From sequence record PZ171035.1: a stretch of 64,000 nt of DNA; one strand, 5' to 3'. A program made the position numbers and the translations under genes. The notes below the pieces were generated by a model. It did not search any database and was not told where the DNA came from. It was given only the letters and a program-made list of their open reading frames with translations. The stretch is from a phage. Positions 6,570 to 64,000 of the stretch are shown here, one piece after another (the first letter of the stretch is position 1; the number at the start of each line of letters is the position of its first letter).

Positions 6570-7012
6570 TGCGTATCCCATTCCTAAGAAAAAGAGAGCA
6601 AAGGCGTGTTCTTTATAAGAAGGACATAGAGGATGAGTATGAACTCAACCGTAAAGCCCGTTCCTACACAGCAAAATTATTCATGGGGACTAGCAACCCT
6701 GATAGATTACTGGACTTTGTTTTCGAACAAGTCTTTATAATATACAGCTTAGCTATGTCTGCTGGTTCACAAGAAGTAAGTGATAAGGCAAGAGATGCTC
6801 TCTGTATGCTCCGTAAAGAGTATGAAGCCCTCATGTATGAAGACTTGTACTCCTTTAAAAAAGAAACCGCTGTAGCGTGTTCTGTGGCTCTTACTGAAGG
6901 TATAGCAGTATTACAGGAACTACCCCGTAGTGAGTTTAAGCTGGTATATGTTCAGGCCAAGAAGATTACAGAAAGCCGTAGTGGTATCACCAACTATCTA
7001 AGGTCATTCTAA
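6569..7012 (+). CDS. hypothetical protein
   Basis: 147-aa ORF; start/stop overlaps with both neighbours. Confidence 0.45.
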   Translation: MRIPFLRKREQRRVLYKKDIEDEYELNRKARSYTAKLFMGTSNPDRLLDFVFEQVFIIYSLAMSAGSQEVSDKARDALCMLRKEYEALMYEDLYSFKKETAVACSVALTEGIAVLQELPRSEFKLVYVQAKKITESRSGITNYLRSF

Positions 7013-27332: not shown

Positions 27333-27408
27333 TACCCGGTAGGCTTAGTGGTAAAGCCCCACTAGTAAACCAACTAGGACGCAGGTTCGAATCCTGTCCG
27401 GGTAGCCA
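27333..27408 (+). tRNA. tRNA (anticodon not resolved)
   Basis: Acceptor TACCCGG/CCGGGTA, D-arm GGCT-TAGTGGTAA-AGCC, T-arm GCAGG-TTCGAAT-CCTGT, discriminator G plus CCA; anticodon arm pairs only with a shifted, non-canonical register. Confidence 0.55.
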
Positions 27409-59314: not shown

Positions 59315-60925
59315 TCACACAATGTATGAACGTAGTGGATTAACACTATCTTCTTCTTCCTCATCCCACATTGGGTCACCCTTGTTATCCACCAAAGTCA
59401 TACCTGCTTGTGGTTTCCAAGGATTGAGATAACCCAGCATGGAGATAGTATCAATACAGTCATCCTTACCTTTAATCCCATTAATGGTAGCTAGTTTAAT
59501 CTGGCCCATGAACAGACCCATAATAGTCGTATCTCTCAACTCTTCTGGGAAGTACATCTTACCAGCTTTGAACCATGGAACTACCAGGTTAAAGCGTGAC
59601 AGTTTAGAGGTTACAGGACGGATGCCTGGCTTACCACCCTCAGAGGATGCAAAGTTAAAGAAGACATTACGGTTAATCATTTCTTTCTGAAGGAGTGAGA
59701 TAAATCCATTTTGTTGTCCTGTAATTTCGACACCAACGTTTTGTGGTTGGTATTCCTGAACCAGACGGAAGAGGTCGTCAAAGTTCTTATCCATAAGCTG
59801 ACGATTAGCCACACCATCAACCCAGAACCAATCTCCATTAGAACTATAAGCCCAAACTGATATGACACTGTAGTCACTGGTCTGTTTCTCCGAAGTAGCA
59901 AAGTCAGTTGTAATATAATAGTTGTAGCAGGACTTCATCCTTAACAGTTGCTGTCTGCTGTACCATTTAATCTCACTATCCTGAACAAGGCGTTCATCTT
60001 CAGAACTAATACGAAGCATAAGTTCCTGGTAGAAGCCAGCCAGCTTACCAGTCTTAACTGCCATGTCATATTGGGCTTTGATGTAGTCGTAGGAGAAACG
60101 GTCATCCCATGCACCCTGAAATTCTTCTCTACTACAGGGGAACTTCTCACATACAGGCCATACGTTTACATCCCATGCACCAGACTCTACTGCTTCAATG
60201 ATAATGTCTTCCTTATTAAAGGGAGTACCATTGAAGATTACTTTACGACGAGTAGGGTCAAGAGCATGGTTCACACCTTTATAAACAGTATCTTTAATAG
60301 CTTCCATGCTAGTCTTAGAGTTAGCATCACCATCACTAATCAAGTCATCCAGTACACAGAGTGTTGGACGTTTACCATATATCTTCGTACCACGAAGACC
60401 TGTCTTAGCACCAAACAACTTAACACCAAGTCGATGTCCTTCTACATTACGGAACTCCAGTAGGTTATCCGTAAAGGTAGCTTCAGGTATCCATTGCTGA
60501 AGGAACTCACTATTCTTGTAACGAAATTCAATGTTCTTACGTGCAGACTTAGCACCGTTATCCATTGAGTCAGATACGTAAATCATTCCTTCTACTTTAC
60601 CCAGGCTAGGTAAGTGACCAAACACTGCCAGAAACAAAGTAAAGTATTCCATGAATACAGCAGTCTTACCTGCACCACGGAAGCACAGGTTAACTACATA
60701 CTGGTTCGGACTAATCATCTTATCCAGCATCTTCAGGTGAACTGGAGGTGTTTTGTTGGATTCACCTTCTTTGCCATTAACCAACTTAATAAAGTTGGCA
60801 AAGGTAAGAGCAAACTGACTAGGAACATAGTTAGATGAATTAAGGTGGGAGTAATCCACCTGGTCCAGCCATTCATCTAGTTCCTGTTTAATTAACTCAG
60901 ACATCTGTAATGTCCTCATCTGCAC
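59315..60925 (-). CDS. terminase large subunit
   Basis: 536 aa; Walker A CFRGAGKT, Walker B LCVLDDL; first large gene of the late operon. Confidence 0.65.
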   Translation of the reverse strand: MQMRTLQMSELIKQELDEWLDQVDYSHLNSSNYVPSQFALTFANFIKLVNGKEGESNKTPPVHLKMLDKMISPNQYVVNLCFRGAGKTAVFMEYFTLFLAVFGHLPSLGKVEGMIYVSDSMDNGAKSARKNIEFRYKNSEFLQQWIPEATFTDNLLEFRNVEGHRLGVKLFGAKTGLRGTKIYGKRPTLCVLDDLISDGDANSKTSMEAIKDTVYKGVNHALDPTRRKVIFNGTPFNKEDIIIEAVESGAWDVNVWPVCEKFPCSREEFQGAWDDRFSYDYIKAQYDMAVKTGKLAGFYQELMLRISSEDERLVQDSEIKWYSRQQLLRMKSCYNYYITTDFATSEKQTSDYSVISVWAYSSNGDWFWVDGVANRQLMDKNFDDLFRLVQEYQPQNVGVEITGQQNGFISLLQKEMINRNVFFNFASSEGGKPGIRPVTSKLSRFNLVVPWFKAGKMYFPEELRDTTIMGLFMGQIKLATINGIKGKDDCIDTISMLGYLNPWKPQAGMTLVDNKGDPMWDEEEEDSVNPLRSYIV

Positions 60926-61586
60926 GAACTAGTTTAGAACCAGCAACCTCTTTGGTAGGTACACCACTATTGATTGCATTGATTTGCTGCTCAGCTAATG
61001 CAGCAAGTGTTGCCTTGAGGTCAGTTAATCCAGAGTTCTCTCTCAAGTCCAGATTGATATTTGTTACCTGGTCTTTCGGTTTAGCTAAGTGAGTAAGGAT
61101 AGAGTTAGCTGCATCACATCTTACTTTCTCACTCGCTGCTGTAGTCATTAGTTCAACCTGAACGTTGATAGCCTTCTGATAATTATCTTGGTTCACAATC
61201 CACACTGGAACCAAACTTTGTTCCATGATGAGGTTAACTAGCTTACCCCTGTGGTAAGCAGATACATAAGCACTAATATCTTTCTCACTGGTTCCTCGTG
61301 CTACGAGTTCTGCTTGTCGGTTGGGGAATGTCTTGAAGTAGGCTTCCTTATTTGAGTAGCCCATGTGCTTGTAAGTCACATACTGAACTGCATTCATGTA
61401 GTCCTGTGTCTTAAACTTACCTTCCTTCATTACACCAGAGTAGGAGATAAAGTTTTCACGGAAGGACTCAGCAACCAGTTGGTCTTGGGTTATGTTGTTA
61501 ATCGTGTCTACCAACTCCTGGGTCACACTGTTTTTGAAGTTAGCAGGTAGTGCATTAATAATCTGCTGCTTAGTTAGTTCACTCAT
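60897..61586 (-). CDS. putative terminase small subunit (by position)
   Basis: 229-aa ORF immediately upstream of, and overlapping, the large terminase gene. Confidence 0.3.
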   Translation of the reverse strand: MSELTKQQIINALPANFKNSVTQELVDTINNITQDQLVAESFRENFISYSGVMKEGKFKTQDYMNAVQYVTYKHMGYSNKEAYFKTFPNRQAELVARGTSEKDISAYVSAYHRGKLVNLIMEQSLVPVWIVNQDNYQKAINVQVELMTTAASEKVRCDAANSILTHLAKPKDQVTNINLDLRENSGLTDLKATLAALAEQQINAINSGVPTKEVAGSKLVRADEDITDV

Positions 61587-62187: not shown

Positions 62188-62230
62188 AAACGGTAAGGGG
62201 TAGAGTCGAGAGGCTCTACCCCATTTCTTT
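62188..62230 (+). terminator. rho-independent terminator
   Basis: GGGGTAGAG-TCGAGAGG-CTCTACCCC followed by ATTTCTTTTTT. Confidence 0.55.
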
Positions 62231-62248: not shown

Positions 62249-62644
62249 ATGAGCATCTACGCTTTTGATATTGATATTACCGGTGTACTTCGTAAGCAGG
62301 AACCCTACTACCTAGGGGAACCAGAGATGGTAAGTAAGTTCTTATCTAAACATGCAGTCTTCCTACCAGACTGTGAAGAATCCCATGAGATAGTTGGTTC
62401 ATTCTTCTTAAGTAACCTGCAAATCAATACACGTATACTTACTGAACCAGTTGTGTATGACCTTACTGAGTATGCAGACTTCGAAACATTCTTCCCAGGA
62501 GTTAGGTTCTATAAAGTACCTGGCTGGGAAATGATTGTTGAACATAACCTCTTTAATAAAACACTTTCCATTTACTTCAGACCTATCCCTAAAGGAAGGA
62601 AAATCCATCATGAAATTCATACTGACCGCCCCCAGTTTTATTAA
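62249..62644 (+). CDS. small protein, paralog family member B
   Basis: AGGAGG RBS; AVFLPDCEESHEIVGSFFLSN...RILTEP. Confidence 0.5.
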   Translation: MSIYAFDIDITGVLRKQEPYYLGEPEMVSKFLSKHAVFLPDCEESHEIVGSFFLSNLQINTRILTEPVVYDLTEYADFETFFPGVRFYKVPGWEMIVEHNLFNKTLSIYFRPIPKGRKIHHEIHTDRPQFY

Positions 62645-62927: not shown

Positions 62928-63245
62928 ATGCACTTCTATGGTTTGAGCTATCGTAGTACCAACCCCCTTAATCTGGGGGTAGGTAAATCCCATTGGATGA
63001 GAATAAGCACGCCTATGACCATGTACTACGAACAATGTGAAAAAGCGGATGAGTTCATCGGAACCTGTCTATTATTAGGCGTACCTATTACCTTTATTAA
63101 AATAGATACTTCCATTGAAGTTCCAGAGAATGTAGTTGTATACATCTACTCTTCCTGTGAACCTCTGATAGAAACTACCCTTACGGGTAGACTTATTACC
63201 CTCTACCCTTCTACCTCATATTTATCTAGCGACGAGAGTCTCTAA
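62928..63245 (+). CDS. small protein, divergent paralog D
   Basis: AAGGAAG RBS; EFIGTCLLLGVP weakly matches the family core. Confidence 0.4.
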   Translation: MHFYGLSYRSTNPLNLGVGKSHWMRISTPMTMYYEQCEKADEFIGTCLLLGVPITFIKIDTSIEVPENVVVYIYSSCEPLIETTLTGRLITLYPSTSYLSSDESL

Positions 63246-63529
63246 TGGTTATCAGTAAAATTTATCCAGAGCCTAATGAGGAAAATTACATCCTCCATAA
63301 AGAAATAGCTGACCTGAATGCTGATGTACTTATCCTGGTTCCAGATGAACAGTCTCTACATGTGATACAAGGATTACTCTTCCTATACAATAAGAATTCG
63401 GTAGTACATCTACTTGAACCAGAAACACCTATGTCCTGGCAGGGTAGCTTTAGTCCTTGGCATCTTAATACAGACAAGTACATCCTTTCATTCGAGGGTA
63501 ACACTCCCATCTATAAGGAAAGGAACTAA
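63245..63529 (+). CDS. small protein, paralog family member E
   Basis: LILVPDEQSLHVIQGLLFLYN...VVHLLEP. Confidence 0.5.
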   Translation: MVISKIYPEPNEENYILHKEIADLNADVLILVPDEQSLHVIQGLLFLYNKNSVVHLLEPETPMSWQGSFSPWHLNTDKYILSFEGNTPIYKERN

Positions 63530-63532
63530 AAC

Positions 63533-63871
63533 ATGAACGTTAAGCTCTTGGGAATGAGTGGTACTGACTTACTGCATTATTCCTCTGTACCAGAAAAAGC
63601 AATCATCCATATTATGACCTATGGGAGTTCTACACTAATAATGGAACCAGGAGAGTTAGCAGACTTTGCACAGGGGCATAAACTTATTACTAACAGTAAT
63701 GCAGAGATAGTTATCCTGCAAAACGGTGAGTCAGTCTCCATACCATTGGGAGATTATGCTCATGTGTTTATCAAAGATGCTACCGTAAGGAATAGTAGTG
63801 GTAACCCTAACCATCCTGACTATTACTCTGGCATAGCACGTATCATCACCAGAACCTCCCCTCCTATTTAA
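63533..63871 (+). CDS. small protein, possible distant paralog F
   Basis: AAGGAA RBS; 112 aa. Confidence 0.4.
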   Translation: MNVKLLGMSGTDLLHYSSVPEKAIIHIMTYGSSTLIMEPGELADFAQGHKLITNSNAEIVILQNGESVSIPLGDYAHVFIKDATVRNSSGNPNHPDYYSGIARIITRTSPPI

Positions 63872-63885
63872 CTGCTTATAAGTGA

Positions 63886-63928
63886 GATAGCTATGATATT
63901 TTTGCATGTCAAAATGTTGATAGCTATG
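63886..63928 (+). promoter_or_regulatory. paired palindromic operator-like sites flanking a promoter-like AT-rich segment
   Basis: GATAGCTATG at 63886-63895 and 63919-63928 (core ATAGCTAT is a perfect palindrome), 33 bp start-to-start; TTGCAT-N17-TATGTA between them. Confidence 0.35.
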
Positions 63929-63940
63929 TATGGCTACAGT

Positions 63941-63960
63941 GGTGTGGCTGGGGCTACACC
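63941..63960 (+). promoter_or_regulatory. 8-bp stem hairpin near window end
   Basis: GGTGTGGC-TGGG-GCTACACC (one G-U pair). Confidence 0.3.
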
Positions 63961-64000
63961 CTTACACTCAACCATCCCCCCCGGTATGTTGACGGTGTAG

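Follow-up and report, generated by a model that had tools for sequence, protein, structure and literature searches.

A conserved single-copy sequence module beside the predicted genome end of a Gamaleyavirus phage, a candidate signal for end formation

The window analyzed here is the whole 64,000-nt stretch of sequence record PZ171035.1, and the site under study is the region 63886-63962 near its right end. The window belongs to a Gamaleyavirus (N4-like, Schitoviridae, Enquatrovirinae), matches 57-62 Gamaleyavirus records at 82-94% identity, and spans the genome from approximately 8.5 kb in through to the right repeat. Toward the right end, the large subunit of the terminase (TerL) and an adjoining gp69 homologue are followed by a cluster of small rightward open reading frames (ORFs), and the site lies directly 3' of this cluster. 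The last ORF of the cluster belongs to PHROG 12606, of unknown function, and its homologues in Mimir124 and Bas96 are annotated as hypothetical proteins. We describe at this site the predicted end of the packaged genome and, beside it, a conserved module that is a candidate signal for end formation.

The site, read directly, runs ...GAGATAGCTATGATATTTTTGCATGTCAAAATGTTGATAGCTATGTATGGCTACAGTGGTGTGGCTGGGGCTACACCCTTACAC... and its features are listed in Table 1. An earlier note on this DNA had described two palindromes bracketing a promoter-like segment, followed by an 8-bp hairpin, and all of these elements were confirmed in position and sequence. The two GATAGCTATG copies lie 33 nt apart, start to start. 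The flanking copies exist, but the bracketing is not strict due to the overlap of TATGTA with the second palindrome. Likewise, the 8-bp stem and its TGGG loop are present, but the stem holds one G.T mismatch.

Table 1. Positions of the site features and of the neighboring genes in the window
Feature	Position	Strand	Remark
Terminase large subunit, TerL	59315-60925	-	
gp69 homologue	60897-61586	-	adjoins TerL
Last ORF (112 aa) of the rightward right-end cluster	63533-63871	+	stop 15 nt before palindrome 1
Palindrome copy 1, GATAGCTATG	63886-63895		lineage-specific; left edge of the conserved module
TAnnAT hexamer (TATGAT, -10-like) then ATTTTTGCAT: TAAT/T-run block	63892-63907	+	includes TTGCAT (63902-63907)
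Small inverted repeat TTTTG-CATGT-CAAAA	63900-63914		between both palindromes
Palindrome copy 2 (63919-63928) plus GTA: conserved box (G/C)ATAGCTATGTA	63919-63930		overlaps TATGTA (63925-63930), which follows TTGCAT after a 17-nt spacer
Imperfect inverted repeat ("hairpin") GGTGTGGC-TGGG-GCTACACC	arms 63941-63948, 63953-63960		straddles the terminal-repeat boundary
Left physical end of the packaged DNA (inferred), where the direct terminal repeat begins	63943-63946	+	homology to mapped ends
First 57 nt of the direct terminal repeat	63944-64000	+	continues past the window; ~401 bp expected
TACAC repeats	63955-63959, 63963-63967		inside the terminal repeat
C7 tract	63976-63982		inside the terminal repeat
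Inverted copy GGTGTAG	63994-64000		inside the terminal repeat

Homology to relatives locates the 5' (left) terminus of packaged DNA within the left arm of the hairpin, and we regard this location as secure. IME11, a phage of the same genus that is 91% identical to the window at the site and carries both palindromes and the hairpin, ends at (T)GTGGCTGGGG. Its read starts peak at GTGGCTGGGG with 240 reads, at TGTGGCT with 180 and at TGGCT with 102, and the other end lies 401 bp away (PMC3896407). The G7C record begins TGACAGGGGCTACACC (the start is also given as TGACAGGGG), and its right-end copy is preceded by ...GATAGCTATGTATGGCTGTAGTGGTG. In Mimir124, the inverted repeat has a homologue, and the annotated 403-bp direct terminal repeat begins within its left arm. 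Additionally, the records of PhAPEC7, PD38, U1G and St11Ph5 stop at window positions 63944-63946 and that of SP5M near 63951, whereas the KP8 and N4 records begin at the base homologous to this end. The boundary is therefore homologous to mapped ends at which linear records start or stop. Terminal repeats of 401 bp were determined by PhageTerm in UE-S5-type phages (PMC11927229), of 404 bp in KP8 (PMC6950046) and of 390-440 bp in N4 (PMC3715699), and the left genome end is the first into the cell (PMC4496689).

Judged by this homology, the site is the junction of the unique right end with the approximately 400-bp direct terminal repeat of Gamaleyavirus. With the end at this position, the repeat takes in the loop and the right arm of the hairpin and leaves out its left arm and both palindromes. 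On the same grounds, the DNA to the left of the end, both palindromes included, is present once per genome, whereas the DNA to the right has a second copy at the opposite end. As a side observation on G7C (HQ259105/NC_015933), its record annotates a 1160-bp region that "contains terminal repeat", compared with the 401-404 bp of IME11, UE-S5, Mimir124 and KP8, and this region ends 37 nt past another ATAGCTAT copy. The gene that the earlier note had expected beyond the window is, from the relatives, the early gene gp1, which there has a virion-RNA-polymerase hairpin promoter, CATGC-TCC-GCATG followed by TTATGGA, approximately 85 nt into the repeat.

We compared about 30 junctions of Gamaleyavirus, Moovirus, Kaypoctavirus and N4, which were aligned on the terminal GGGGCTACACC almost without gaps; the percent-identity profile was taken from 20 Gamaleyavirus and Moovirus junctions. 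In this profile, positions 63897-63907, the ATAG and TA of the box, and positions 63939-63968 were 90-100% identical, as against 50-80% for the spacers and palindrome 1. The T-run block reads ATATTTTTGCAT in Gamaleyavirus (63896-63907), TATAAT plus TTTTTTCTTAG in N4 and CCTAAA plus TTTTTTCAT in Kaypoctavirus. In each of the four genera, 23-25 nt separate the start of the box from the end downstream; the N4 variant is CATAGTTACTTG, at 24 nt, and the other variants are ATAGTTAT, ATAACTAT and ATAG(C/T)TACTTG (Moo19, N4). The sequence AGTGGTG/TGGCWGGGGCTACACCCTTACAC, where the slash marks the cut, is conserved across the end, and the spacers between the conserved features vary among junctions.

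Palindrome 1 behaves differently from the box. It is exact in approximately 11 junctions, has one mismatch in 4, and is otherwise absent or replaced, either by ATAG-TGC-CTAT or by a GC-rich terminator-like hairpin, so that about half of the junctions lack it. In phages whose last genes are unrelated, homology is confined to the module from about 63893 onward to the right, which puts palindrome 1 on the mosaic edge of the module. The small inverted repeat at 63900-63914 is missing in about a third of the junctions; it reads TTTTC-TTAGT-GAAAA in N4 and TTTTC-ATTCT-GAAAA in the Kaypoctavirus contig L032, a change of G-C to C-G. In Moonfish (L016, ~429-540) and KP8 (L027, ~480-575), the whole unit from the T-run to ATAGCTATGT is duplicated in tandem just before the terminal repeat, and the second copy in Moonfish is of the N4 type.

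The same comparison bears on the possibility that the T-run is the remnant of a terminator for the rightward genes, which would have hitch-hiked beside a recombination-prone repeat. A GC-rich hairpin, AGGAGGT...ACCTCCT, does stand directly before the T-run in pSb-1, Moo19, an uncultivated viral genome (UViG) and all Kaypoctavirus junctions. The window phage lacks a hairpin at this place, the scan for intrinsic terminators was empty within 63872-64000, and the hairpin of the site has no T-run after it, so that an intrinsic terminator was rejected. Moreover, hitch-hiking fails to explain a constant distance from box to end across genera whose spacers have diverged, or why variable spacers lie beside an invariant box. 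We consider this explanation improbable.

The evidence that something real lies at the site is stronger in this conservation than in the statistics within the window. The 8-bp palindrome ATAGCTAT occurs twice in the 64 kb, both times at the site, where 1.48 copies are expected; the search for further copies that the earlier note had proposed thus returned none within the window. Close direct repeats of 10-mers are frequent, being found in 8 separate places (11 overlapping 10-mers), whereas only 2 of 150 Markov simulations yielded one whose core is an 8-bp palindrome. None of ATAGCTAT, ATAGCTATGTA, ATATTTTTGCAT and GGGGCTACACCC recurs above chance elsewhere in the window, and extra ATAGCTAT copies are rare in the approximately 10-kb early region of relatives. 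The looser motif GATAGYTAT is over-represented (5 in the window, 1.06 expected), with 3 of the 5 within the last 300 nt.

Other occurrences of this half-site were noted in passing. A third GATAGTTAT lies at 63706-63714, within the last ORF. In relatives, GATAG-type inverted repeats (GATAGTT...AACTATC; AGATAGTTCAACTAGAAAGATAGCTATTCG) occur after the gp1 terminator, ahead of the next early hairpin promoter, namely at 528-546 in N4 (L024), 6759-6790 in K57alpha1.2 (L002), 1098-1125 in G7C (L008) and about 1045-1065 in ECBP1 (L004). The GATAG half-site is common to these early-region repeats and to the palindromes of the site.

The earlier note had read the locus as a two-operator site for a dimeric DNA-binding protein around a sigma-70-like promoter. 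In this case, a promoter of the type TTGCAT-N17-TATGTA or TTAACT-N18-TATGAT would direct transcription into the repeat and gp1, under the control of a dimeric protein bound to the two ATAGCTAT copies. Two identical dyad-symmetric 10-mers separated by 33 bp, about three helical turns, would suit such an arrangement, as would the excess of GATAGYTAT. The -35-like/N17/TA-start geometry is kept in four genera (TTGCAT, TTCATG, TTCATT or TTCTTA, then TATGTA or TACTTG), and a TAnnAT hexamer stands ahead of the T-run in nearly all junctions. A poor match to sigma-70 would be compatible with function because N4 late promoters are reported to be only remotely sigma-70-like (PMC9163698).

However, the two-operator layout is not conserved: the first site is missing in about half of the junctions, and several lineages, which read ATAGTTAT, ATAACTAT, ATAGCTAC or, in N4, ATAGTTAC, lack the dyad symmetry of the second (Bp4/ECBP1/nithesis/24-32N, PGN829.1, Moo19 and N4). 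Position 6 of the proposed -10 hexamer is A in the window and A, T, G or C among relatives, whereas sigma-70 needs T. The sigma-70 scan leaves out TATGTA due to this missing T and lists instead TTAACT-N18-TATGAT (63868-63897), with 9 of 12 matches, a level that shuffles reach as often. Promoter-like hits in the last 3 kb are at chance, with 6 found and 8.1 expected in shuffles. The rest of the 64 kb holds no further copy of the palindrome or the box, and hence no sign of a regulon. Furthermore, gp1 is already served by its conserved virion-polymerase promoter, and on linear virion DNA a transcript begun at the site would reach the end of the template after approximately 450 nt. We found no transcript-start data in the literature for any Gamaleyavirus. 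Altogether, a regulated sigma-70-type promoter is unlikely here. Neither the sigma-70 resemblance nor the pair of operators was supported; a cis-element recognized by a protein would be compatible with the strong conservation of palindrome 2 and with the persistence of TTGCAT-N17-TA(T/C)nnn across genera. On its regulatory side the site is ordinary, being neither a new kind of operator nor a new kind of structured element.

The hairpin was weighed separately. Its folding energy of -6.4 kcal/mol (z = -1.9) is unexceptional, being matched by 9 of 200 shuffles; on the other strand z = -1.0. Among 14 distinct sequences, compensatory changes were seen in none of its 8 pairs. The right arm is invariant, left-arm variants in G7C and PGN829.1/UE-S5b break pairs, a C-G pair becomes a wobble in nithesis, and Mimir124 has one extra base in the left arm; no counterpart was found in N4. 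When the terminal bottom strand of the window phage, G7C, N4 and KP8 was folded back on itself, shuffles did equally well (z from -0.04 to -1.0). A conserved structure was ruled out by this lack of covariation, the weakness against shuffles and the unremarkable fold-backs. A known RNA family or tRNA was also ruled out, as ARAGORN found no tRNA at the site and Rfam gave no match at E<=1 within 63000-64000.

The arms are better described by a repeated motif. Four forward TACAC repeats are located at +5, +13-15, +70-74 and +77-81 in all four genera (P ~1e-5). The right arm corresponds to the first of them, and the last two stand directly upstream of the P1 hairpin promoter in relatives (e.g., L011, ~640-655). 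The left arm holds a degenerate inverted TACAC, GTGTG in Gamaleyavirus and Moovirus and GTGTA in Kaypoctavirus, and the cut falls in or beside it. Because the arms are TACAC and an inverted copy, we read the hairpin as an inverted pair of the terminal repeat motif around the cut. A further inverted copy, GGTGTAGCC, begins at 63994, 33 nt into the repeat, and extends 2 nt past the window; N4 has one too. The poly-C tract about 30 nt into the repeat is conserved but varies in length, with 7 C in the window, 8 in NAN33P5 and a UViG, 12 in K57alpha1.2 and 9 in N4.

Inverted copies at a genome end could also belong to a replication element, in which a 3' end folds back and primes synthesis, or in which the AT-rich block serves as an unwinding region or origin. 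The inverted repeat 63941-63960 lies exactly at the end, with the second inverted copy inside the repeat, and PMC3896407 credits Ohmori et al. (1988) with reporting that the 3' ends of N4 DNA carry short inverted repeats and that in vitro synthesis starts at the ends. Nevertheless, the terminal bottom-strand folds are weak and shuffle-like in the four phages, and the inverted repeat lacks covariation. In addition, the left end of the duplex has no left arm, since this arm lies outside the repeat. A role in replication is thus a minor possibility, quite unlikely on this evidence.

A small protein-coding gene at 63893-64000 (35 aa) was considered as well. The ORF is open in the window, and equivalent short coding sequences (CDSs), given as hypothetical proteins in some related records, are annotated in Bas96 (L010, 523-621), nithesis (L018, 450-542) and UE-S5b (L022, 392-541). 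Its ATG is ATA in phages with TATAAT, the C-tract of 7, 8 or 12 bases shifts the frame, and N4 and Kaypoctavirus have no equivalent. As neither the start codon nor the reading frame is conserved, the annotated junction CDSs are probably spurious, and we give a gene at this place hardly any credence. The annotation of Klebsiella phage vB_Kpl_K57alpha1.2 (OY979416.1) is, as a separate matter, out of register with its sequence, and "DNA primase" and "exonuclease" pseudogene features cover its right-end small ORFs and the repeat junction.

Weighing these results, we favor, with some reserve, the interpretation that the site is a single-copy cis-element for making the genome end, that is, for terminase recognition and cutting at the concatemer junction. 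The elements are single-copy, they are better conserved than the flanking sequence, and they keep their distances from the end although the spacers have diverged between genera. The box in particular occurs once and is kept in four genera at a set distance from the cut, as a terminase site would be. In the proposed mechanism, the end-generating cut in replicative concatemers would be positioned by a cis-signal of three parts: the TAAT/T-run block, the box ATAGCTATGTA, which stands 24 nt before the end, and the GGGGCTACACC/TACAC repeats at the terminus, just within the repeat. The signal would be recognized by the packaging terminase TerL, perhaps together with the adjoining gp69 homologue as a candidate partner. 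Palindrome 1 would be a lineage-specific second copy of the box core at the mosaic edge, and the hairpin would arise from the inverted degenerate TACAC (GTGTG) at the cut site, with no need for folding. More tentatively, and with appreciable doubt, the T-run, the spacer of about 17 nt, the box and the TACAC repeats may together constitute the packaging and end-formation signal of N4-like phages.

The promoter-like geometry may represent a weak host-polymerase promoter into the repeat; this is possible, compatible with the geometry, and could coexist with a packaging role instead of replacing it. End formation could then be coupled to transcription into the junction, by analogy with what has been proposed for T7/T3.

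Several points weigh against a packaging signal. We infer the cutting and packaging role from position and conservation only, and the comparison with pacB of T7/T3 is an analogy of layout. The conserved TTxxxx-N17-TAYnnn geometry fits a weak promoter equally well. The Kaypoctavirus contig L030 lacks ATAGC and keeps TATGTA, and N4 and Moo19 have TACTTG; due to these variants, the palindrome as such is not the conserved thing. Finally, no similar box was found at the other repeat boundary, 401 bp downstream within gp1. An apparent match there, AGCTATGA, which in Mimir124 and K57 stands 53 nt short of the right-hand repeat end, was taken as a coincidence in the gp1 coding sequence because it is not kept in IME11, which reads AGCTAGGA, or in N4, which reads TGCAATGC.

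For N4-like phages, neither a packaging site nor a small terminase has been defined (PMC6992544). The gp69 homologue is highly conserved, with 1861 homologues and 60% identity to proteins of Achromobacter and Sinorhizobium phages. It is called a "small terminase subunit" in the name of one UniRef cluster; the PHROG of the homologue has an unknown function, and searches gave no Pfam family and no PDB sequence match. The AlphaFold model is all-alpha (pLDDT 72), and none of its structural matches was convincing. Two further observations concern the wider window. A strong terminator-like hairpin (11 pairs, then a T-run) is located at 62197-62222, before the ORF of the rightward cluster that starts at 62249. 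ARAGORN reported one tRNA-like gene of undetermined anticodon at 27333-27408, and "tRNA-Undet" is also listed in Gamaleyavirus by the UE-S5 paper (PMC11927229).

The repeat boundary itself has already been annotated or mapped in relatives; for the conserved module just outside the repeat, we found no description in the literature. N4-like phages (Schitoviridae) are widespread and used in phage therapy. A defined cis-signal would open the packaging mechanism to binding, cleavage and plasmid-packaging assays. It would also help annotators to place ends, as many related records are arbitrarily permuted or carry spurious junction CDSs, and would serve the engineering of N4-like phages.

Among known systems, N4 is close in layout at the end. 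The studies of IME11 (Li et al. 2014, PMC3896407), G7C, Mimir124, UE-S5 and KP8 report end positions, and none of those consulted discusses the conserved sequences outside the repeat, and we found no description of the upstream elements for N4 in the literature. The left end of N4, TGGTGGGGCTACACCCCTTACAC, is homologous to (G)TGGCTGGGGCTACACCCTTACAC of the window, and its repeat is likewise about 400 bp. The order of the four TACAC repeats, the C-tract and the P1 hairpin promoter beyond this end is shared, and the related box CATAGTTACTTG stands at the same distance from the end, with TATAAT and a T-run before it. Unlike the window, N4 lacks ATAGCTAT, the second copy, TTGCAT and the inverted repeat across the cut.

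The P1-P3 promoters of the N4 virion polymerase are, as the hairpin of the site would be, DNA hairpins near the left genome end. Genuine promoters of this kind in relatives have the form NNNGC-TCC/GAA-GCNNN followed by TTATGGA (cf. PMC4496689). The window hairpin, in contrast, has an 8-bp stem with a G.T mismatch and a 4-nt loop, where a 5-7-bp stem and a 3-nt loop are called for. It was rejected as a promoter of the P1-P3 type because the GC-NNN-GC core, TTATGGA and the stem and loop format are all missing.

In lambda cosB, repeated sites for the small terminase subunit and an IHF site lie beside the nicking site. The window similarly has repeated short sites beside a sequence-specific cut, with an IHF core match between them: TATCAACATTTTG (63922-63910, minus strand) agrees exactly with the IHF core consensus WATCAANNNNTTR. 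An IHF site between the palindromes was rejected, since the match is kept in NAN33P5 and phiG17 and not in most relatives, and about 2 chance matches are expected in the window. The window also differs from cosB in that its ends are a terminal repeat and not cohesive, and in that only one of its two sites is conserved.

In T7 and T3, pacB is located beside the terminal repeat, a promoter lies near the right end, short repeat arrays are found inside the repeat, and end formation passes through a hairpin intermediate. These concatemer-junction packaging signals were reportedly worked out by Dunn and Studier in 1983, Chung and Hinkle in 1990, and Fujisawa and Morita in 1997. T7/T3 and the N4-like phages share no sequence homology, and the latter differ in late transcription by the host polymerase and in having no recognized small terminase. 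The two groups are alike, however, in their non-permuted genomes with short direct terminal repeats, whose left end is the first into the cell. In both, moreover, a single-copy signal would lie in unique DNA to the left of the right repeat, with short motifs inside the repeat and a promoter-like element directed toward the junction.

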